NCBI GenBank assembly: GCA_041690105.1
Contig: JAWLHX010000001.1
Location: 14,939 to 78,938 of the forward strand
Direction: 5' to 3'
DNA: 64,000 bases
DNA from: Phycisphaerae bacterium
Lineage (GTDB): Bacteria; Planctomycetota; Phycisphaerae; FEN-1346; JAACEH01
Shown: piece by piece, positions 97 through 53,502 of the stretch
Layout: every line of letters starts with the position of its first letter
Position numbering within the stretch: the stretch's first letter is position 1
Made by a program: the position numbers and the translations under genes
Notes under the pieces: generated by a model
The model's database searches: none
Told to the model about the DNA's origin: nothing
Seen by the model: the letters and a program-made list of their open reading frames with translations, nothing else

Positions 97-2202
97 ATGT
101 CTTCTCATCGTCAGCCAAAGTTATCACGCCTGACACAACTGTCGGCTTTGCTTACGGCAACAGTGTTGCTTGCCGCGGCCGGGCTTAAAGCCCACCAGCT
201 GGCTACGCGTCCTGTGCTTGAGCAGACTTGGCTTGATCAGCGGTGGCTTTTGACGGCAGGAGTGGGATACGAGCTGGTGCTTGGCCTTCTACTGCTTAGC
301 GGGCTGTGGCGCAGACCGGTGTGGTTTCTGGCTCTGGCAACATTTCTTTTCTTCACTGTCGTCTCGCTTTACAAGGCCATATCAGGTGAGGCGTCGTGCG
401 GCTGTTTCGGCGTCATTTCAGTCTGGCCATGGTACACAGTGGCTCTCGATGCAGGCTTGGTTGCGTTATTACTCCTGTTCTTTCCGCGAGCCAGTAACAC
501 TGGCTTTCAACCTCCCGCTCAAAAGCCAAGCCGGCCTCGTCTGCGTTTCGCGACGGTCGCTGCCGCCAGCCTGGTTCTTGGTGCTCCCGCTATGGTTGCC
601 ATGGTTGCTTACGAGCCAGCCAGGCTTTCAAACGATGGCGACATACTGGGCGATGACCAGTTTGTCTTGCTTGAGCCTCAAGCCTGGACAGGTTTGAGAT
701 TTCCGCTGCTTAAGTATCTGGCGGTTGATAATGAGCCCGGCAGCACAGAGAATGAGGTGGCTGAGGGAAACTGGGCAATCGTTCTCTATCATAATGACTG
801 CGGACGCTGCAGGAAAGTGCTGGGCGAGCTGGAGAAGCGTGCTTCTACCCTTAGCTCTCTCGATGGCTGGCCGGAAAACGTAGCCATGGTCGAACTGCCG
901 CCGTTTGCTGACCAGCGGTTGAGCCTGCACACAAAAGGATGGAAGTACGGTCGCCTGAGTACTGAAAGGGACTGGTTTGTAACAACCCCGGCGGTGATTC
1001 GATTACAGGATGGAGAGGTTGTAGCGGCAGCCGATTCGGTTAGTGATATGAAACAGCTTATTGCCATTGCCTCAACAAAAGCAGTTCCGGCAGCGACTGA
1101 CGCAGGTACGGCCTCAGCAGCGACCACTGACGGCACTGACCCTTCAACGCCGACAGTGGCGGGCGGAACAAGCCAATCGGTCTCGGCGGCACCTGCTGCT
1201 GAAGAGAAGAAGCAAAAGACAAGAGTGCATCAGACAGTATCGGTTGATTGGGATGACGGAAAGGCGGAGTTTGACTTTGGCTTCAGCAGACCGGAAAGCC
1301 GACACAAGGTTAACATCGTACTGACCCGAAAGGATCAGCCACTGCCGGCACTGGGACCAATCAGATCAGAATGCAAGTGCATGACAGGCAAAGAGATCCG
1401 TTCCGCCGCAGAAGACCCACGACAATCCCTAACTCTGGAACTGGTTTTCGAGGCACCGAACGAGCCGCTTTTCTACAGTAAGCGCCTGCTTATTTCGTCC
1501 GCCCAAAACCCGAGCGAGAAGTTCGTTCTCACGGTCAAATCTCGCGTGGGGATGCCGCTTTCAGTTGAACCGGAACAGGTTGATGCAGGTGTACTTATTG
1601 TCGGCCAGAAGTGTCGGCTGAACGTGGTCTGTGTTAACGAAGGAGACGAGGAGATAAGGCCTGTCTATGGCATATCTTCTGACCCGGCGTGCACCGCACT
1701 TGTTCCTCGCTCGCCAATTGCCCGTGACGGTGGGCGACTTTCCGTGCCCATTGTCATTGACGCATCCCGCGCCAGGGCAGGATCGACAAAAGCTCGCATT
1801 TCCATCAGCACGACAAGCAAACTGCAGCCAACAATTAACGCAGCGGTATCTTACTCAGTGACCGACCGCTTCACCATCAGCCAGGGTGAAGTAGCCCTTG
1901 GTTCAGTAGCGGCCGGTTCCAGAACCAGCCACAGTATCCTCATAGGTGCCAGAGATTCGCAGGAGAGAATTGTCGAGCGGCATGAATTACTGGCATTTCA
2001 GAATCTCGAGGCTATACTCACGCTTGATGAACAGCCGGGTAAGGCTTTGCTGAAGGTTGTCTGTCTGGCAGGCAACAGCCAGGGGCCGATGAGCGGGACG
2101 ATCCGCCTTCATCTTCAAGGCCATTCTCAGCCGGTTGATCTTTACATTTCTGGCAAGGTGAAAGAGGCCGGGGCGGTTTCCGCCGCGGCCGCGCCGCAGT
2201 AA
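97..2202 (+). CDS. Membrane protein with N-terminal DoxX/MauE-like polytopic domain, thioredoxin-like CxxC segment and C-terminal DUF1573-like beta repeats
   Basis: ORF 13..2202. The likely true start is ATG 97, preceded by GGGAG (MSSHRQ...). There are 4-5 hydrophobic helices in the first ~150 aa, a DCGRC motif, and repeated segments of the form FDFGxS..., VLIVGQKCRLNVVCVNEG... and ISQGEVALGSVAAG..., which resemble DUF1573. Confidence 0.5.
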   Translation: MSSHRQPKLSRLTQLSALLTATVLLAAAGLKAHQLATRPVLEQTWLDQRWLLTAGVGYELVLGLLLLSGLWRRPVWFLALATFLFFTVVSLYKAISGEASCGCFGVISVWPWYTVALDAGLVALLLLFFPRASNTGFQPPAQKPSRPRLRFATVAAASLVLGAPAMVAMVAYEPARLSNDGDILGDDQFVLLEPQAWTGLRFPLLKYLAVDNEPGSTENEVAEGNWAIVLYHNDCGRCRKVLGELEKRASTLSSLDGWPENVAMVELPPFADQRLSLHTKGWKYGRLSTERDWFVTTPAVIRLQDGEVVAAADSVSDMKQLIAIASTKAVPAATDAGTASAATTDGTDPSTPTVAGGTSQSVSAAPAAEEKKQKTRVHQTVSVDWDDGKAEFDFGFSRPESRHKVNIVLTRKDQPLPALGPIRSECKCMTGKEIRSAAEDPRQSLTLELVFEAPNEPLFYSKRLLISSAQNPSEKFVLTVKSRVGMPLSVEPEQVDAGVLIVGQKCRLNVVCVNEGDEEIRPVYGISSDPACTALVPRSPIARDGGRLSVPIVIDASRARAGSTKARISISTTSKLQPTINAAVSYSVTDRFTISQGEVALGSVAAGSRTSHSILIGARDSQERIVERHELLAFQNLEAILTLDEQPGKALLKVVCLAGNSQGPMSGTIRLHLQGHSQPVDLYISGKVKEAGAVSAAAAPQ

Positions 2203-2223
2203 CCTGACCGACAGCCGCACAAC

Positions 2224-4601
2224 ATGCAGAAAGAGAACGCCATGAATCGTCGCCTGATATACGTTCTGACGCTGCTTTCTGTGGCCGCGTTTTCAATTCA
2301 AACAGCTTCGGCGCAGCAGTCCCCTCAGGCAGAAGCAGAGACCCCTGCCCCACCGCCGTCCCCCAATCAAACCTCTGCCGACGATCAGATGGCGACACAG
2401 GAAGCCGCTGCTGCCGAGCCGGAGATGGTACAACTTAATTTCCCCGAGAATGTCGAAGTCAAGGTTCTCATTGACTATGTGGCCAAGCGCCTGGGCATAA
2501 AGCTGATGTATGATGAGGCCCTGGTGAAGAAGCGCATCACCATGATCATCCCTCAGCGCATTCCGCTGGAGAGCTTGCCGGGAGTTCTGCAGAGTGTTCT
2601 GAAGATGGCAAATCTGACCATGGTTGATGGCGACGAACCTGGCTGGAAGAAGATCGTGGCCGTGCAGGATCTGCCAACGGTAGTTCGAGACCTGCAGCTG
2701 ACTGGTGAGGCCTTTCGAACAGCCGAAGCGACTGTTCTGATGGCCCAGGCATTCGAGCTTCGCTCGGCGAGCGTGGCCCAGGTTGACCAGGTGATCAAGC
2801 CATTCCTCAGCAAGCCTGGAGGCAGCACCTTTCTGCTGGCTGATCAGAACACCATCATGGTCATGGACTACGCTGACGTTCTGCGCCGTGTGGCTCCGCT
2901 GATCGATCTGGTTGATCGGCCTGGAGATCAGCTGGAAATGCGTTTTGTGCCCGTGCGCCATTGGGAGGCGGACCTGCTGGCGAGGCAGGTTACGGCGCTT
3001 CTTACCGAGAAGAATCGCCTTGCCGGCGGCGGCAGGCAGCTGCGCGTCAGCATGTCGACTGAGCCACGGGGCAACCAGATTGTGCTTATCGCCCCTCCAG
3101 CCCAGGAAAAGGAAGCCCTCGAACTGATCGAGAAGCTGGATATTCCGGGGCAGGTGGAGACCAGGACTTACCGCTTTCTGCACGTACCGCCTGAGCGCGT
3201 AGACAGGCTGGTTCGCGGGGCTTTTGGAGACAAGGACCGGTATAAATCGATGATCGATGCCGAGAGCGGCATGCTCATAGTGACGGCATCATCGATTGTT
3301 CAGCAGCACGTGGAAGCGCTGAAAAGGGACCTTGATGTTCCGCTCCGCGAAGAAGAGAGCCATGTCCGCTTCTACAAGATCATGAATCGAACGGCAGCAG
3401 AGGTTATGGCTACCATAAGAGCGCTGGAGGCGGGCGGCGGATTGACGGCCGACGCCCTGGCCGGCATGGATGGGCCAGTGGCCTCGGACCACGAATTACC
3501 GAGGGAGAGAGTCTTTCCACCGGACCGAATGTCCCTCCAAGCCCACCTGGCGTTGCTCCACCCAGGCCGCCGATGGATCCCGCGGATTCGGCGGCGACTG
3601 CCCCAAAAACCGACCCGGAATCCGCCGCACAGCCTCGCGGAGCGATCGCCGCAGCCAGCGGAGAATCAGCAACACAGGCCGTCGTAACGGCCGACCCGAT
3701 TACAAACTCCATAGTGGTCATAGCACCTCCTGCCACGCAGAAGGTTTATGCCAAGCTGATCGAGATGCTGGACACGCGCTTGCCGCAAGTAATGGTCGAG
3801 GTCACGCTTATTACGCTCGACACTTCGGACAGTTTCTCTCTGGGCATTGACGTAGCCAAGGCCGGCGAGGCGGGAGACGATGGCAGATACCTTGTTTTCA
3901 GCTCAACAGGCCTGAGCTCTGTTGATCCGCTCACCGGCGCCTTGACGCTGGCTCCAGGGCTGGGCTTTAATGGCGTACTGCTTGATCCTGACACAGTCAA
4001 TGTAGTGGTGAGGGCTCTGGCCAGTCACGCCCGAGCCAAGGTTGTATCGGCTCCCAAAGTCCTGGTAAACGATAATGGTACAGCCACCCTTTCCAGCATA
4101 GCCGAAGCTCCATACGTCAGCATCAATGTCGGCGACACAGTCTCCACCACCAGTTTCGCGGGCTATGCATCGGCCGGCACTACCGTAACAGTCACCCCTC
4201 ACATCAGCCAGGGAGATTACCTGCTCCTGAACTATGCCTTTACACTGAACAGCTTCACCGGATCGGGAGCAGCGGGCGTACCGCCGCCTCGGCAGACCAA
4301 TACCATCAACAGCACCGTCACGGTACCAGACGGACACGCCGTAATAGTCGGCGGCCTTACGCGGCGTGACATCAGCAAAAGCATCGCCGGGCTTCCGTAT
4401 CTGGTCCAGCTGCCGTTGCTCAAATATCTCTTCGGTAACGAGACCAGGAACGACAATGAAACGACGCTCTTTGTGTTCATCCGGCCGGTGATATTGCGGG
4501 ATGATCAGTTCACGGACCTGAAGTATATTTCCGAAGTGGCCTCGGGCACGGCAGGACTTCAGCCGGAATACCCCGAGAGCGAACCAATGATGATGCCATA
4601 A
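2224..4601 (+). pseudogene. gspD: Type II secretion secretin GspD, split into two frames (ORFs 2224..3687 and 3573..4601)
   Basis: The N-terminal part has a signal peptide and secretin N0/N1-like segments (VQLNFPENVEVKVLIDYVAKRLGIKLMYDE). The C-terminal ORF has the secretin core (VVSAPKVLVNDNGTATLSS...TLFVFIRPVIL). The frame changes between ~3480 and 3530 in the tract cgagggagagagtc. A Pro-rich linker reads through in frame 0 from 3420. Confidence 0.75.
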
Positions 4602-23973: not shown

Positions 23974-26457
23974 TCAACGTAGATTCTTCAGCTTTTCCTG
24001 ACGCCATTTGATGCGCTCCGCCAGATGCTGCCTCTGCTCCTCCTCAAGCCTTGAACGCCATTGCTCAATTTGTTCCACAGCAGTCGCCGCTGAAAATTGC
24101 GGAGAGATGCTTTCCAGCATCGAAAGCCCCTCCTCGTAACGGTTAGTCAAAGAAAAGCCTTCAACAAGTTCGCTCAGCACAAGAAGACGACAGCTTTCAG
24201 ACTGACTGATCGCCAATGCCTCGTCCAGGTGCTGCTTGCCGTCCAGCGGCAGGCGTTCCTTGCCGATGTTCCGAATGCTTGCTGAATAGGCCTTCACCAT
24301 AAGCCATTTTGCTTTAGCGTCGCCGTTGGCGGCTTTAACATGCTCGTCAATCTGTTCCTCCCAGTGCTTCTCCTTGAGCAATTTTCGGTAGGACCAGGTC
24401 AGAATGTTTGCCACCTCAATCCGCACGTGCCCTTGCTCGTCATGCAGGAGTTCTTCAAACATCTGCTGTGTTTCAGGGGTCCCGAGGCCGCGAGCGATTA
24501 TGTTGTGCGTCCGCCAATCAGTCATCGGCAGCTTGCCCTCCACCGCCAGACGCCGCATCACTTGAACGTATCCTTCGTACCCGCGTCCCGGGCCAATCAG
24601 CTCCGCCTGCCGCAGCAGAATCCCAATACGCCTCAATACTGCCATGTCCGCGGCAGCTCTCATTTCCTCAGTCCCAAGAGCCAGGCCATAGGCACGTTCA
24701 GTCCATCTCTTACCGCGCTCTTTATCCCCGCTGGCTATCCAGGCTTCAGCCACGCCACAAGTCGACTGCCACGAAAGCTTCCCCTCCTGGAAGGCCTTGT
24801 CCCACTGAGGCTCGAACTGCAGCAGAAGATCACGCGATGCATCTCCACTGGCGGCAGCCACAGTCGCCAAGGATGTCGTCACCTCCGCACTGTCGCCTTC
24901 GGCAGTTCCAGCTACAGCGCCGATTTTCAACGCTTCGCCCGAACTCAGCACGGAAAGAGCCGCCGCCAAATCCTTCAGTTGTGCCGGTGTTAGAGAAGAC
25001 TTCACCCCCTCGTTCTCAAGATAATTTGCAGTCAAGCTGCGAGCCCATCGCTCACGCTGCTCAATAGGCAGCTCAGGGCCAACGAGAGTTGCCAAAAATC
25101 GCCAGTTGGAAACCCCTGCCTTAATGGTGGTCTCCGGATCCGATAGCGGCACCTCAACCAGGTGAGCGCCAAGTTTCGCCAGAGAACTTCTGGAAGCAGG
25201 TGGCTTGTTCAGCTGGCGCGCCAGCCAGAGCATATCCTGCACAGTCCAGGATCTCCAACCGTCCTGCTTATCGACCATTTCCGCAAGAACCGAAGGGAAG
25301 CTTGTTTCGGAAACCGCTGCAAGTGAAAGCTCCAGTGCCCGCACATCCCCGGTTGGCATCTCTGCGAGACGCCCAGTATCTGCTGCAAAAGTTGCCTTCA
25401 GAACCGCCGCCACGCGATTCTTCTGCAACTCATCAAGGTCGGCCCGACACACTTTCAGTACCGACTGCCATTGTCTGGGAGTCAACAGCTGCGCCTTGTC
25501 GGCATCAGCGCCGTATACATCAATCGCGTAAGTCATGGCCTTTTGGTACGCTCCCGCCCCGTTCTCACCAACCTTCTGAAGGTCGCTCAGCAGACCACCA
25601 AGATATGCCACTCCAACAGTTTCAAGTTTTCCGCCGCTGTTTATCCACACAGCAGGAACGTCTAAGGCCTGCTTGTGACCGAGCCCTCGCAGGCTGCTGC
25701 CAATGCTCATCATCCCCGCGCCATCCATTAAAGCGCATGCCTGCGGATCAGCAAGGTATGCCGCCCAAATACGTTCAGCCAGAGACGACTTGGATTCAGC
25801 ACCTATTTCACTATTTAAGTCGCGGACGTAAGAGGAGATGATCTGTGGCTTGACCTTGCGAACAGACTCAGCATCCTTCAGTATCACTTTGTCGATCTTA
25901 TCCACCAGCCGCTTGCGACCAGCCTGCTGAAGTTGACTTGATCCCTTAATGCGACTGGCAACCGTAGAGATGCCTCCAGAGCTGAAACTATCAACCATTG
26001 CAGACTGACTCGCCCACTTGCCCAGCACATCGGCCGACCCGGCATCTCCCAGCGAACTCAATGACTGCCCGAGAGCCAGTGCCTCATTACCGTCGAGTGC
26101 AAGCAATGTGTCATCGTTCACAAAGGCCGCTTTCAGAGCGGTAAGCCAGCGGCTGCGACTATCTTGAGTAAAATCTTGCTGGAACGACTTCACCAGAGAT
26201 GACCACTGCCGCGGTGAGATCTCGCGAGTACGGGCCGCAGAGGAGAAATACTGCTCGGAAATATAACCTTCCAGCAGCTGACGCTGCTCCTCAGCGGACT
26301 TGCCTTGGGCGGCCAGATCCTGCGCCAGCTTAACCAGCTCACTGCTCTCCATCGCCTGCCATTCAGCCGGAACCTCGGCAGACGCATTTTGGCCCAAAGC
26401 CAGTCCCCCCAGGAATACTACCAGTGTCATGATTGCTGAAAGCTTTCGGCCTGGCAT
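23974..26457 (-). CDS. Large secreted alpha-helical repeat protein upstream of rhs
   Basis: ATG at 26457 after AAGGAG. Signal peptide MPGRKLSAIMTLVVFLGGLALGQNASA. Low-complexity helical repeats. It ends ~56 nt before the rhs start. Confidence 0.6.
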   Translation of the reverse strand: MPGRKLSAIMTLVVFLGGLALGQNASAEVPAEWQAMESSELVKLAQDLAAQGKSAEEQRQLLEGYISEQYFSSAARTREISPRQWSSLVKSFQQDFTQDSRSRWLTALKAAFVNDDTLLALDGNEALALGQSLSSLGDAGSADVLGKWASQSAMVDSFSSGGISTVASRIKGSSQLQQAGRKRLVDKIDKVILKDAESVRKVKPQIISSYVRDLNSEIGAESKSSLAERIWAAYLADPQACALMDGAGMMSIGSSLRGLGHKQALDVPAVWINSGGKLETVGVAYLGGLLSDLQKVGENGAGAYQKAMTYAIDVYGADADKAQLLTPRQWQSVLKVCRADLDELQKNRVAAVLKATFAADTGRLAEMPTGDVRALELSLAAVSETSFPSVLAEMVDKQDGWRSWTVQDMLWLARQLNKPPASRSSLAKLGAHLVEVPLSDPETTIKAGVSNWRFLATLVGPELPIEQRERWARSLTANYLENEGVKSSLTPAQLKDLAAALSVLSSGEALKIGAVAGTAEGDSAEVTTSLATVAAASGDASRDLLLQFEPQWDKAFQEGKLSWQSTCGVAEAWIASGDKERGKRWTERAYGLALGTEEMRAAADMAVLRRIGILLRQAELIGPGRGYEGYVQVMRRLAVEGKLPMTDWRTHNIIARGLGTPETQQMFEELLHDEQGHVRIEVANILTWSYRKLLKEKHWEEQIDEHVKAANGDAKAKWLMVKAYSASIRNIGKERLPLDGKQHLDEALAISQSESCRLLVLSELVEGFSLTNRYEEGLSMLESISPQFSAATAVEQIEQWRSRLEEEQRQHLAERIKWRQEKLKNLR

Positions 26458-26892
26458 GTTCTTAGTCTCCTTAGCCATATCAACGACGGACGTGGATTGT
26501 GTCTGTTGCCCCAAATTCTGCATGGACAATACATGCACTTCTTGAAATTGTCAATATAGAGTCTTCCCCTTTTATTAAGTTTTACTATCCTCTGTTGCCA
26601 ACTGTTACAGCGCACTCCTGATGCAACAACCAAGCACATGACTAGGGGCATGATTACCTTAAGAAGTTTCTGTTCCGCGCCTTAAAGATGATCGGCAGCC
26701 GAATTAGCCTTGATATTCATCTCTAATAGCATTATCCTCACACCCACTCGACTGGCCACTGGAGAATCCTGGTAATCGGGTAGAGTCGAGATCTGGCGCG
26801 GCGGTGTAGGCAGGGCATATCTGTTACCGGCCCTTTCGGTTGCCGGTGCCTCACTATCTCTGCCGTGCTCCGTTTCCAGTATCCCGCTCACC

Positions 26893-26925
26893 GAACCGGA
26901 CGCGCGGTTTTCCCGCATCCGGCTC
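26893..26925 (-). ncRNA. Group II intron domain V
   Basis: Near-consensus 33-nt hairpin gagccggaugcgg-gaaa-accgcgcguccgguuc. Confidence 0.75.
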
Positions 26926-27133
26926 TCGGACAAGGCCCGACGCCCTTCGCTCACGAGTCGCTGACAGGCCGCGCCTGGAGCCGAAAGAGCCCCAGTTCTT
27001 GATAGAGGTACTCGTCCGGGTATCGTGAGGCCCCAATCGGCTCGCCCTGCGGCGTGCCGCGTCCTTGGTCCTTGTTACGGGTCGTTCGCTGCTTCCGTCC
27101 ATGGTTGTCCGTTTCTTCCACCGGTACCCGTAG

Positions 27134-27667
27134 TCACATCTTGACAAGCTTGAGAACCTGCCGGTCGCTGATGCGGCGGGTCACGGAGGTCATCAGTTCA
27201 CCGTGGGGGATGCTGTCGAAGTAACCGCTCAAGTCTGCGTCCACCACCTCCCTGTGCCAGCCATCGAGCAACGTCATGACCTGTCTAATAGCATCATGAG
27301 CGTTACGTCCGGGTCGGTAGGCATACTGCTCCGGCGGCAGGTCCGTCTCGAAGATCGGCCCCAAGACCAGCACTGCCGCCATCTGCACGACGCGATCACG
27401 GACCGTCGGGATACCCAAGGGCCGTTGCTTGCCGTCCGGTTTGGGAATGTAAACCCGCCGGACAGCCTGCGGACGATATTCCTTCTTCCTGAGTTCCTCC
27501 GTCAGTTCACCCAGCCACCGTTCCACCCCGTACAGTTCGATCCCGTGGAAGTCCTGGCCGCCCACCCCCGCCGCACCGCCGTTACCCGGCTTCGTCGGTA
27601 CTACGGGGCCTCTCCGCCACCCCAAGCAGCCTGGCCTGTCCCTCGCGGGTCGCCAGTTGAAGGTCAC
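27134..27667 (-). pseudogene. Group II intron reverse transcriptase/maturase, truncated
   Basis: Encodes only RT motifs 0-4: [34 protein letters not shown] ... [13 protein letters not shown] ... [15 protein letters not shown] ... RQVLKLVKM, then stop. No YADD. Immediately after the stop the same frame reads ...PDEYLYQELGLFRL, resembling the extreme C-terminus of IEPs, so this is an in-frame internal deletion. Confidence 0.8.
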
Positions 27668-28124
27668 GCGCCTTCACCGCTTCGGGTTTCCCGTGTTGCG
27701 TTCGATCTCCTCTGTCGGCATGCCGTCGCCACTACCCCGGCGGGATCGTCAGGTTCTATCGCTCATTCTTCGCCTGACGACGGCGGCCTTCCCCGTTACA
27801 CGGCCGGGTCGGCTCCCGCATTGTCCTTTTCGAGGCCTGCTCAGCGTTCACTCACGTTACGGCCTGTCGACTTGCCGAGTCGCCCAAGGCGACCCTTTAC
27901 ATCAGAGGTTTCGGCAATTTCGTTACCTCCATTGCCGCTCCGATTGCTACCGGCTGGAGCGATCAGTTGCCGGGCGGGATTGGCCCGCTGGAGCTCGACA
28001 CCTTTTCACGGCACACCATGTAAAACGGACCCGCCTAGGGAGGATAATCGGCGTATAATTTGGGCCCACCCCAGCGGCCTCCGATCTGGTATGCATTACG
28101 CACACCAGATGAAGGAGGCAGAGG

Positions 28125-28271
28125 ATGCTGACGGTGGACGATTTTGGACAGATTCGCAGGGCGCACCGCGATGGCATGAGTATTTGGGCCAGCCGGAAGG
28201 AGATGGGCGTCCATGGAAAAGCAAGATGGAGTATGTCCTTTCTTGTTCCCTTAACTCTCTTGCAGGCCTGA
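28125..28271 (+). pseudogene. IS21-family istA N-terminal remnant
   Basis: GAAGGAGG then ATG 28125: MLTVDDFGQIRRAHRDGMSIWASRKEMGV..., similar to the IstA N-terminus (MLT.E.w..IRRl...G.S....AR.LG.). It then degenerates and terminates. Confidence 0.45.
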
Positions 28272-28767
28272 TGTATGTGGAAAGTCTTATTGGCTGCAAC
28301 AGAATGGTGGGGCAAACGGCGCTGTAATTAAACTCCTCTAAAAGAGGCATCTTATGCGCAACCGCTTATCACAGAAGGTGTTAGATAAGACGCACCCAGC
28401 GCTGAAGATGTTCCGCGAGTCGGCAGTGTTAAGTAAATATCAGGTATAAAAAATAGCGCATATGAGGGGGCAAAATCGCTGTAACTCAAATGCTCTAAAG
28501 AGAATCACCTGCTAGCCGGCCCAACAGCCTATTACAGTCACGGGATGGGTTACTTCAGTGCTGGGCTCTCGAGCAGAGTCGAAAACGGCCGCAGTAAACC
28601 GTCAGCCTCTTCGTCGCCTCGTAGATAATCACTCCGGTTCCAAGCCTGAAGGTCGTCGCGGAGCCTTCGCGCACATGGCGCTACACACGATGGGAGGCGG
28701 TTTTCAGCGTTTCTCACGGTTTTCCCGAGAAACAGAGGCTGTCCGGTTACATCGCGCTACACACGCG

Positions 28768-30227
28768 TCAGGCCCAGAACGGCACGTACTTGGCATCCTT
28801 CTTCGACTCACTAGCCTGGCCATGAGGCTTAATGAGGCCAGCTTCGATGGTGTCCCTGATGATCCGAGAGGCGATGGGGTAGTTCTTGTCGCTGATGCCA
28901 AGCCGTTTGCGCAGCGTGGCGTTAGTCATCTGCTTGCCGGATACGACCAAGAGACCGGCATGTTGATAGCAGGCGCGGATGCGATCTGCCTTGTCCATGT
29001 CGGCGAACTTACGTGGACCAAAAAGAACGGCAATCGTATGACCGGGCGAAACCCTGAAGTCCGGCGCCGGCAACTGAAACATTTCGACGCTGAACACAAC
29101 CTTGTCAATGCCACTGCCGCGCTCTTCACAAATCTGCATCCGCCGCATAACAGCAGCCAAGTCCTCGTTCCGGGATCGCGGGGGTTCATCGATGAAGCGA
29201 AGCGTGTCGATCAAGGGGACACCCGGGTTGGAGATCTCTATCCGGTCGCTGAATAACTCCACCATCGGTCCGGTGCCCGTTATATGGAATTCCTGGTGAA
29301 TGAGGGCATTCGCCACCAGTTCCCGGACGGCGACCTCCGGGAACATACGCACTTCCTTGCGCAGTGCCTGTCCCACGGCTTCGTTCTGAGGCAATTGACT
29401 GTTGATGAATTCAATGGCGGCCTCGAAGCCGGAGGCATAGCCCTTGGTGACGACCTGTTCGCGTAGCGTCTCAATCCGATTGACACCCTTGTAGACGACG
29501 ATTCGCAGGGCCTTGCGGGCCAGGTGCTCAAACGCATCAAGGCTTTTCGCAAAAAGGATCGCCCCCAAGTTCGTAATGTCGTAGCGATCAGTCGTTCGAG
29601 CGACGATAAAACGTTCAGAGACCAATCGCTTCAAAATGGCCGAACGGTTCTCCGGCAGGTTCTGCCGCGACATCTCGAGGTAGGCTGGGTAGTCGAGCAT
29701 CGCCAGTACGTCATCTGCCCCGGCTCCCTCAAAGGCCAAGCCCTTTTCAAATGGCTGCTTGGCAAACAAAGCCCAGAGGGATCGCTCCTTCTCCGGGAAT
29801 TCCTTGAGCTTCTTCTTGTAGCTGCCCGAACGGATGAACTCGGTGCCCTTGAACTGCACTGGCGTATGGGTGGCCCGAGGGACGCTGAAGATAACGAACT
29901 CTTTGCCGGCTGCTTGGAACTCATGAATGCGAAAGTCAATTCGCGGAGCCAGCTGTATGGCCAGCCAGTTCTCCAGTTCCTCGTTGCCGACCTTCTCGCA
30001 CCGCGGTTTGAATGTTGTGCCGACGAGAGCGTGGGTTTTGTCAGCGACGCCCCAGACAATGTAGCCTTTGTTCTTGCCATGCAGAGCGGCGGAGTTAGCA
30101 ATCGCCGAGAGGTACTCGCCAATATCTTCCGGCGCCCAGTTATTGACCTTAAACTCGACCCATTCTGTTTCACCGGGCATAGAGGCCAACTCGTGCAAGA
30201 GCGCCGCCAGTTGATCGTGCCTCATCC
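28768..30227 (-). CDS. AlbA_2 (Schlafen-like divergent AAA) plus HATPase_c_4 plus C-terminal wHTH regulator-like protein
   Basis: Start MRHDQLAALLHELASMPGETEWVEFKVNNWAPEDIGEYLSAIANSAALHGKNKGYIVWGV... with a GGAAATGAGGTAAGG ribosome-binding site. Central HATPase-like region. C-terminal HTH LRKRLGISDKNYPIASRIIRDTIEAGLIKP. The longer ORF up to 30489 is probably not translated. Confidence 0.7.
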
Positions 30228-30577
30228 TTACCTCATTTCCTCTGCTGGCAACTCCCTGCGCAAGGACTCGCAAGGTCGGACAACCCTCACAGCCCGGAGG
30301 CCGCAGACAACCGGCGGTCTCCGCCCCGTCTGTTGCGAGCACAATTGTCGTGACAGCGTCACGACAGTCCCCTTCAACCACACCTAATTCCGAATACTGG
30401 CCAGAACAGCCAGCCCCCGGACTGTTCGGCGCGTCTTGGCATGATGATCGGGTGGAATTATAGAGTCTGCAAGCATCTTTCACAAGCATTCCCCTTCACC
30501 CGACTTCGCCAGCATCCTACAGGTAGCGATCTGGAGATTCGCTTGGCAACCATGTCGCCTTCTGGCATAATCCCGGC

Positions 30578-53427: not shown

Positions 53428-53502
53428 GACGCGGGAGTTGGACGCGAACCAGCGCAATCGCCTTTTGAGCCCCGCGCTCTGCCAATTGAGCTATCCCGCA
53501 AG
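53428..53502 (-). tRNA. tRNA-like element with encoded CCA; anticodon stem does not pair (probable pseudo-tRNA)
   Basis: Minus strand: TGCGGGA-TA-GCTC-AATTGGCA-GAGC-G-CGGGG-CTCAAAA-GGCGA-TTGC-GCTGG-TTCGCGT-CCAAC-TCCCGCG-T-CCA. Acceptor (7 bp with one G.U), D-arm and T-arm fold well. The anticodon loop is CU-CAA-AA. Positions 39-43 (GGCGA) cannot pair with 27-31 (CGGGG). Confidence 0.35.

Follow-up and report, generated by a model that had tools for sequence, protein, structure and literature searches.

Whether a group II intron with a broken maturase gene is still at work or has become a dead relic is the question raised by a locus on the minus strand of a Phycisphaerae bacterium contig (JAWLHX010000001.1, assembly GCA_041690105.1). 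The stretch analysed as a whole, 64,000 nt from positions 14,939 to 78,938 of this contig, is called the window here, and all positions are counted from its first letter. An earlier note had placed a group II intron at 26830-28103 and suggested that it might still splice with a maturase supplied in trans. We find that the feature is a group II intron with an internally deleted and stop-interrupted maturase open reading frame (ORF), and a copy with such an ORF is unable to act on its own. It is likely an inactivated copy of a mobile, widespread family of IIB-like introns of class E/F type that have no endonuclease (En) domain, and would then be a non-autonomous, probably immobile relic, in which self-splicing may persist.

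Identification of the group II intron

The Rfam scan of the whole window at gathering thresholds gave two matches to group II RNA models. Each exceeds its gathering score, and the two share a strand and stand in the order expected. RF02003 (group-II-D1D4-4) matches 27990..27852 (-) with 94.7 bits (E 1e-19) and spans just 138 nt of domain I. RF00029 (domains V and VI, D5-D6) matches 26927..26780 (-) with 43.9 bits, where the gathering score is 40, and this match was repeated on a 3-kb slice. The 177-codon ORF at 27667..27134 (-) matches positions 1-96 of 205 of Pfam RVT_1, the reverse transcriptase (RT) domain, with E 5.7e-14. The group II intron RT/maturase model TIGR04416 of NCBIfam matches the same ORF with E 5.2e-52, where 177 bits (cutoff 300) were reached and profile positions 14-160 of 353 were covered. 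The only match of this ORF to a retron or defence RT was Drt3a, with E 0.17.

Intron boundaries and exon pairing

The ends of the intron were set by comparison with its relatives. Five identical, active copies of a family intron, on contigs L004-L008, encode the maturase P0101. On L004-L007 the common sequence begins exactly at GTGCGCCGTG and ends with ...CTCGACCCTAC after about 1,895 nt; L008 has the common 3' boundary only, and its identity with the other four starts about 420 nt further in. Only 26-27 nt separate the 5' end common to L004-L007 from the start of the RF02003 motif. The homologous 5' start in the window is GUGUGCCGUGAAAAGG at 28016 and the homologous 3' end is ...CUCGACUCUAC at 26780. 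The first five nucleotides, GUGUG (28016..28012), are aligned to GUGCG or GUGUG in more than 100 family copies. The window copy aligns end to end with full-length relatives in the DNA alignment, and its 5' and 3' parts match the family profiles end to end (nhmmer). Upstream of 28016 no sequence is common with any relative compared. The boundaries and the elements of target recognition are as follows.

26780..28016, minus strand: whole intron remnant, 1,237 nt, 5' GUGUGCCGUG to CUCGACUCUAC 3', from the extent shared by relatives and the alignment
27581..28016, minus strand: 5' part of the ribozyme, domains I-III to the start of domain IV, 436 nt, containing the RF02003 match
28023..28017, minus strand: intron-binding sequence 1 (IBS1) UUACAUG in the 5' exon, complementary to exon-binding sequence 1 (EBS1) of the intron
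28030..28027, minus strand: IBS2 GUCC in the 5' exon, three nt upstream of IBS1, complementary to EBS2
27796..27802, minus strand: EBS1 CGUGUAA in the loop GCCGUGUAACGG (27804..27793), covarying with the final 7 nt of the 5' exon
27823..27826, minus strand: EBS2 GGAC in AAAAGGACAAUG, a family-variable loop complementary to exon positions -11 to -14
28099..28103, minus strand: GUGCG, a chance match inside the 5' exon, 87 nt upstream of the true 5' end
Predicted ligated exons: ...GUCCGUUUUACAUG|CCGAUUACCAGG..., with the 5' exon ...GGGUCCGUUUUACAUG joined to CCGAUUACCAGGAUUC...

Exon pairing served as an independent test, and it fits a 5' end at 28016|28017. Over 53 unique introns, EBS1 and IBS1 form on average 6.09 of 7 pairs, compared with 4.31 when the pairings were shuffled 200 times (maximum 4.64). 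The window copy forms all seven (CGUGUAA with UUACAUG, one G·U), and its second loop, AAAAGGACAA, pairs with GUCC of the 5' exon (4/5 pairs for EBS2/IBS2). The intron therefore occupies a target that fits its own EBS1 and EBS2.

Lesions of the maturase gene

The lesions were read from DNA alignments with full-length relatives and from a protein alignment with homologues. Three were found, two deletions and one nonsense mutation, and they leave the following pieces.

27581|27580, minus strand: junction of deletion 1, 218-224 nt missing by DNA alignments
27137..27583, minus strand: maturase remnant A, RT0 to RT3/4, ending RQVLKLVKM, 70-77% identical to homologues
27136..27134, minus strand: in-frame TGA in place of the TGG (Trp) of KMW that is present in every homologue aligned
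27035..27133, minus strand: maturase remnant B in the same frame, 33 homologous codons to the start of RT4 (LRVPVEETDNHGRKQRTTRNKDQGRGTPQGEPI)
27035|27034, minus strand: junction of deletion 2, 531-534 nt missing, placement uncertain by about 4 nt
26951..27034, minus strand: C-terminal remnant of the maturase, ASRYPDEYLYQELGLFRLQARPVSDS, the last 26 or so codons and the stop codon 26953..26951

Through deletion 1, GGGUAAC of domain IV is followed directly by the RT0 codons AAC-GGC-GGU (NGGAAG), with AAC/GGYGGTG microhomology at the joint. The missing part comprises the 5' element of domain IV, the ribosome-binding site, the start codon and some 45 codons of the N-terminus. Because ribozyme sequence is fused in this way to RT0 codons, the first 29 or so codons of the 177-aa ORF overlie ribozyme RNA and do not code for maturase. 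At the stop codon the DNA alignment reads AAGATGTGACTA in the window and AAGATGTGGCTG in the relatives. The homologous stretch after the TGA, LRVPVEETD...RGTPQGEPI, then runs into deletion 2, which extends from just past PQG.PI (RT4) to ...G.GT|SRYPDEY and took away RT5-7 along with the remainder of RT4 and almost the entire X/thumb (maturase) domain. This domain (GIIM, PF08388), which the relatives carry, is therefore absent from the window copy except for its last 26 or so residues. Instead of an uninterrupted ORF with RT motifs 0-7, only RT0 to the start of RT4 is found, with the in-frame TGA and without a start codon. The balance of lengths agrees with this anatomy: 1,237 nt plus about 750 nt gives about 1,987 nt, the modal full length. 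Plasmid relatives under annotated ltrA genes each align with the window copy in three pieces over about 1,985-2,016 nt, which independently confirms the two deletions.

The coding remnant is slightly more worn than the RNA core, though its decay is mild. Three of the 79 positions conserved at 95% or more have changed (D→G in GVDGQ, G→W, and W→stop), a number reached by only 4 of 50 intact homologues. The damage is thus mostly structural and probably not very old.

A member of the family from another genome (P0014, GCA_024449935.1, L001 4001-4825) has independently lost an internal segment in frame (ISPLLNKV|RGQGTTRYPDEY) and keeps a still-open maturase of 274 aa; its contig stops 28 nt past the ORF, before any domain V. 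The end points of this deletion lie within about 7 residues of those of deletion 2. By this likeness, the region may be a recurrent hot-spot of deletion.

These results confirm several parts of the earlier note and change others. Neither outcome that it named as refuting came about, since covariance models match domains I and V and the RT is not that of a retron or a diversity-generating retroelement. The note had rightly seen a group II intron with an RT of group II type, an ORF (27667..27134) ending in ...RQVLKLVKM, a domain V some 200 nt past the stop (209 nt as measured) and, behind it, a residual frame resembling the C-terminus of an intron-encoded protein; this frame, ...RYPDEYLYQELGLFRL, aligns with the C-termini of homologous proteins. 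The stop codon, which had been taken as the point of deletion, turned out to be a TGG→TGA point mutation. Of the single loss of about 1 kb covering RT5-7, X and En, the absence of RT5-7 and of nearly all of X stands. The loss itself consists of two deletions of about 220 and 530 nt, about 750 nt in total, and no En domain was lost, since the full-length relatives have none.

State of the RNA core

The RNA core was compared with two family consensus structures. For the 5' part (RNAalifold, 53 unique sequences) the consensus has 120 well-supported pairs, of which 88 occur with at least two pair types. The window copy breaks 3 of these 120 pairs, within the family range of 0-10 and the range of 1-3 in multi-copy lineages, and deviates at 2 of 194 conserved positions. 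For domains V and VI (36 unique sequences; 38 well-supported pairs, 25 with at least two pair types), one pair is broken and one of 61 conserved positions deviates, an A→G in J5/6.

26925..26893, minus strand: domain V, GAGCCGGAUGCGGGAAAACCGCGCGUCCGGUUC, with AGC triad, 2-nt bulge and 5-nt GAAAA loop, from the RF00029 and RF04356 alignments
26780..26889, minus strand: extended domain VI, with basal helix GAG CGGGAUACUGG / CCAGAUCUCG A CUC and a distal insert of about 85 nt

Domain V shows no deviation at conserved positions. Its tip is GCGG-GAAAA-CCGC, and the loops of relatives are GAAAA, GAGAU or GAAAU. In domain VI the bulged branch-site A lies at 26786 and is followed by 6 nt to the ...UAC 3' end at 26780. 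The helix is backed by family covariation and by the fold of the single sequence; domains V and VI of the window copy fold alone into the family shape (z = -4.26), with domain V reproduced. RF00029 must skip an insertion of about 70-95 nt to align domain VI in the window and in the relatives, because domain VI of this family is long and carries the distal insert. Conserved and covarying in all family members, the insert includes a CACCGG...GAAA...CCGGU hairpin, and no published description of it was found in a limited look at the literature.

The RNA core (domains I-III, V and VI) is preserved as well as in active relatives, with pairs and conserved nucleotides within the range of multi-copy lineages. 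Since the core looks intact and the exon pairing is kept, the predicted RNA may still splice if it is transcribed, by itself or helped by a related maturase.

The intron family and related systems

The remnant, read through its stop, matches thousands of group II maturases in a protein search, and the best foreign ones are 76-77% identical. Complete relatives encode proteins of about 395-417 aa in which RVT_1 and GIIM are present and an endonuclease domain is absent. A family census was made by scanning for a conserved 21-mer of domain I genome-wide. It gave at least 120 loci in Planctomycetota, Acidobacteriota, Proteobacteria, Latescibacterota and other phyla. Among the loci listed, the modal size of full-length members is about 1,985-1,993 nt, from paired nhmmer matches of the 5' and 3' parts. 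Against plasmids, blastn matched 121 records, with pPL62-3 of Planctomyces sp. SH-PL62 as the best (72.9% identity).

ORF-less derivatives of 721-953 nt are frequent among the loci listed, and often several copies of the same length occur in one genome. Three copies of 749 nt were found in one Latescibacterota genome, three of 919 nt in a Bryobacterales genome and five of 953 nt in the Gammaproteobacteria chromosome OZ241870. Copies of 755 and 756 nt occur in two Gemmataceae genomes, and lengths of 721 and 925 nt were found once each (ORF-less loci: L012 2425-3173; L034; L094; L018/L060/L123; L041/L055/L086/L089; L056; L074; L044; L026). Bacterial ORF-less introns were called rare in a 2015 review (PMC4424553).

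Some members stand head to tail. In three tandems (L012 2425-3173 + 3174-5158; L086 3384..2432 + 2431..1479; L060 4523..3605 + 3604..3491) there is no spacer, and the GUGCG of one copy directly follows the ...CUCGACYCUAC 3' end of its neighbour. At L080 the 5' exon closes with the 3' end of an intron and one additional C. At the inner junction EBS1 and IBS1 pair poorly (3/7 in L012). Such tandems would most likely arise when a new copy homes into an already occupied site, since target recognition lies almost wholly in the 5' exon.

Lineages IIE and IIF are described with a 5-nt domain V loop, a small IIB-like ribozyme with EBS1 and EBS2, an En-less maturase and a distance of 6 nt from branch site to 3' end; a 5-nt loop in place of a tetraloop is found in class E/F introns such as Pe.th.I2, Ge.ur.I1 and So.us.I2, as in the window copy with its GAAAA (Nagy et al., 2013, PMC3753933; Toro and Martinez-Abarca, 2013, PMC3552965). 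The small ribozyme using EBS1 and EBS2, the maturase with RT and X domains only and no D/En, and the six nt between branch A and 3' splice site are likewise shared by the family studied here. Class F members occur in overlapping host phyla, and the loci found here include Bryobacterales and Planctomycetota. Bryobacterales is the order that includes Solibacter. The family differs in the distal insert of about 85 nt in domain VI, and the window copy in being defective. The family is thus like class E/F, En-less and IIB-like, as judged by these shared features.

The closest solved structures to the family maturase P0055 are those of the GsI-IIC RT (6AR1, E 4e-54) and the E. rectale IIC intron maturase (7UIM, E 1.6e-51), which are also proteins of about 420 aa without En. 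Compared with them, the window copy has no fingers, palm-end and thumb regions. In its RNA the family does not resemble IIC, as EBS1 is 7 nt long and EBS2 is used, and the targets share sequence motifs specific to sub-lineages instead of a common terminator hairpin. A IIC (terminator-targeting) reading, prompted by these structures and by hairpins in a few 5' exons, was rejected, since the motifs of the targets covary with EBS1 and EBS2.

ORF-less introns and introns with a degenerate intron-encoded protein are a described category in bacteria and are called rare (Simon et al., 2008, as summarised by Zimmerly and Semper, 2015, PMC4424553). As described there, they have lost maturase coding, have kept the ribozyme and need outside help for splicing or mobility, as would the window copy. 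They usually occur beside closely related intact introns, and none was found for the window copy within the searched data. Unlike them, the window copy keeps about 60% of its ORF as debris, and unlike the proliferating ORF-less forms of its own family it has no 5' element of domain IV.

Alternative explanations

Three other explanations concern what the locus is. An RT fragment from a retron, a diversity-generating retroelement or a defence system, next to a domain V-like hairpin that arose by coincidence, would account for a generic RVT_1 match and for nothing else. TIGR04416 and Drt3a differ too widely in their E-values for this, two independent group II RNA models match on one strand in the right order, and the region is collinear with introns of about 2 kb that are annotated with ltrA, so that we give this explanation practically no credence. 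The intron as first drawn would begin with the GUGCG at 28103, end near 26830 and have a single deletion of about 1 kb starting at the stop. It builds on a pentamer that is really present at 28103..28099 and on an ORF that really stops after LVKM. Family boundaries and EBS1/IBS1 pairing, however, give 28016 and 26780 as the ends, 87 and 50 nt away, and 26830 lies inside domain VI. The homologous frame continues for 33 codons beyond the TGA, two deletions are present instead of one, and relatives of about 405-417 aa carry RVT_1 and GIIM only; this anatomy is scarcely tenable. It is somewhat easier to imagine, and still very improbable, that the deletions are artefacts from collapse or mis-joining of a repeat in a metagenome-assembled genome and that the real locus is full-length, as the family is multi-copy in many such genomes. 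Repeats commonly break assemblies, and clean internal deletions are not the usual outcome. Moreover, the frame is continuous with homologous sequence at both junctions, there is an independent nonsense mutation besides extra substitutions at conserved residues, and shortened forms like this one turn up repeatedly, at identical lengths, in chromosome-level assemblies from long reads.

The remaining question is whether the copy is a working, non-autonomous intron, with its ribozyme under selection and spliced or perhaps mobilised by a maturase acting in trans from a full-length relative. The earlier note had proposed this route, and multi-copy ORF-less relatives make it plausible at the level of the family (749 nt three times, 919 nt three times, 953 nt five times among the loci listed); bacterial ORF-less introns usually share their genome with related maturases that possibly act in trans (PMC4424553). 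In the window copy itself the ribozyme is no less intact than that of active relatives, both in its pairs and at conserved positions, and EBS1 and EBS2 still match the exon. The case is weakened here by the state of domain IV. We aligned eight shortened relatives (721-1,174 nt). One, of 1,174 nt, is a degenerate copy, and the other seven are cleanly ORF-less, several of these in multiple copies. All eight keep a 5' element of domain IV of 100-140 nt (CCGGUGGAGGGAAGGGGCCU...GGAGAUUGGC and the start-codon region), and the window copy alone is without it. In the IIA intron Ll.LtrB, subdomain DIVa is the high-affinity binding site of the maturase. By analogy, the domain IV element is a likely maturase anchor in this family. 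The streamlined forms measure 721-953 nt, whereas the window copy is still burdened with some 650 nt of useless ORF debris, and it appears as a single copy in the searched data. Its ORF product forms a singleton protein cluster on one contig, and no second family copy was found in the window (Rfam and nhmmer). The 33-nt domain V had no exact match in representative genomes, a collection without the source genome, and 24-mers of the deletion-2 junction and of the EBS1 context each had none in metagenome contigs, in a scan that one mismatch would escape. A maturase more than 77% identical was absent from a collection of 5.8 billion proteins which contains the ORF of the locus itself.

With the domain IV element lost and no close partner or sister copy detected, the intron is most likely an immobile relic. 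Some points weigh against this. The RNA core is no more damaged than that of active relatives, as expected of an element that is maintained and spliced, and the multi-copy ORF-less relatives show that trans-mobilisation occurs in the family. A helper maturase may be encoded elsewhere in the source genome, outside the window searched, and the anchor role of the lost element is borrowed from DIVa of Ll.LtrB. On balance we regard a working intron served in trans as unlikely. Slightly more doubtful still is a ribozyme kept by selection that splices accurately from an intergenic or leader transcript, alone or with a maturase of at most 77% identity.

For the immobile relic, the following course of events would fit. 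The intron would have entered a site matching its EBS through reverse splicing and reverse transcription (EBS1 CGUGUAA/IBS1 UUACAUG; EBS2 GGAC/IBS2 GUCC). The deletion of about 220 nt would then have cost it the start codon, the N-terminus and the 5' part of domain IV, TGG→TGA would have interrupted the frame, and the deletion of about 530 nt would have taken RT5-7 and the maturase (X/thumb) domain. Autonomy would have been lost through these three lesions, and the copy would now be on its way to erosion.

Genomic surroundings

28768..30489, minus strand: flanking gene, 573-aa protein with Schlafen AlbA_2 and HATPase_c_4 domains
23974..26538, minus strand: flanking ORF, 854 aa, with a signal-peptide-like N-terminus and no Pfam match
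28125-28271, plus strand: small ORF (MLTVDDFGQIRRAHRDGMSIWASRKEMGVHGKA...) with a good ribosome-binding site, 108 nt from the 5' end of the intron, on the opposite strand

The intron sits between two genes and not inside one, so there is no obvious consequence for the host. A promoter and terminator scan of 26300-28900 gave nothing decisive on transcription of the intron, and a repeat scan of 26400-28900 gave short matches only, probably by chance. The small ORF was considered as the N-terminus of an IS21 IstA, which would place the intron in the end of an insertion sequence. This was dropped, as Pfam, NCBIfam and tblastn against plasmids were all empty. Two similar stretches of about 40 nt, at about 28308-28350 and 28466-28510 (+), were seen by eye some 155 nt apart (GGGGCAAA..CGCTGTAA..CTCTAAA(A)GAG); they lie in a patch of lower GC between the intron and the Schlafen/AlbA_2-type gene and were not reported by the repeat finder. 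Further away, a tRNA match at 53429-53500 (-) reaches 29.8 bits against the Rfam gathering score of 29.

Significance

Truncated and degenerate copies of group II introns are a well-known by-product of the turnover of bacterial retroelements. The relic itself is of little weight, as it met an ordinary fate for such elements. The value of the analysis is corrective, in that it gives the true boundaries, the three lesions and the anatomy of the family, which lacks En, has a long domain VI and closes domain V with a loop of 5 nt. It also offers a usable contrast. The multiplying ORF-less forms all keep the 5' segment of domain IV of about 100-140 nt and the dead copy lost it, which points to this segment as the likely docking site of the maturase in this family.

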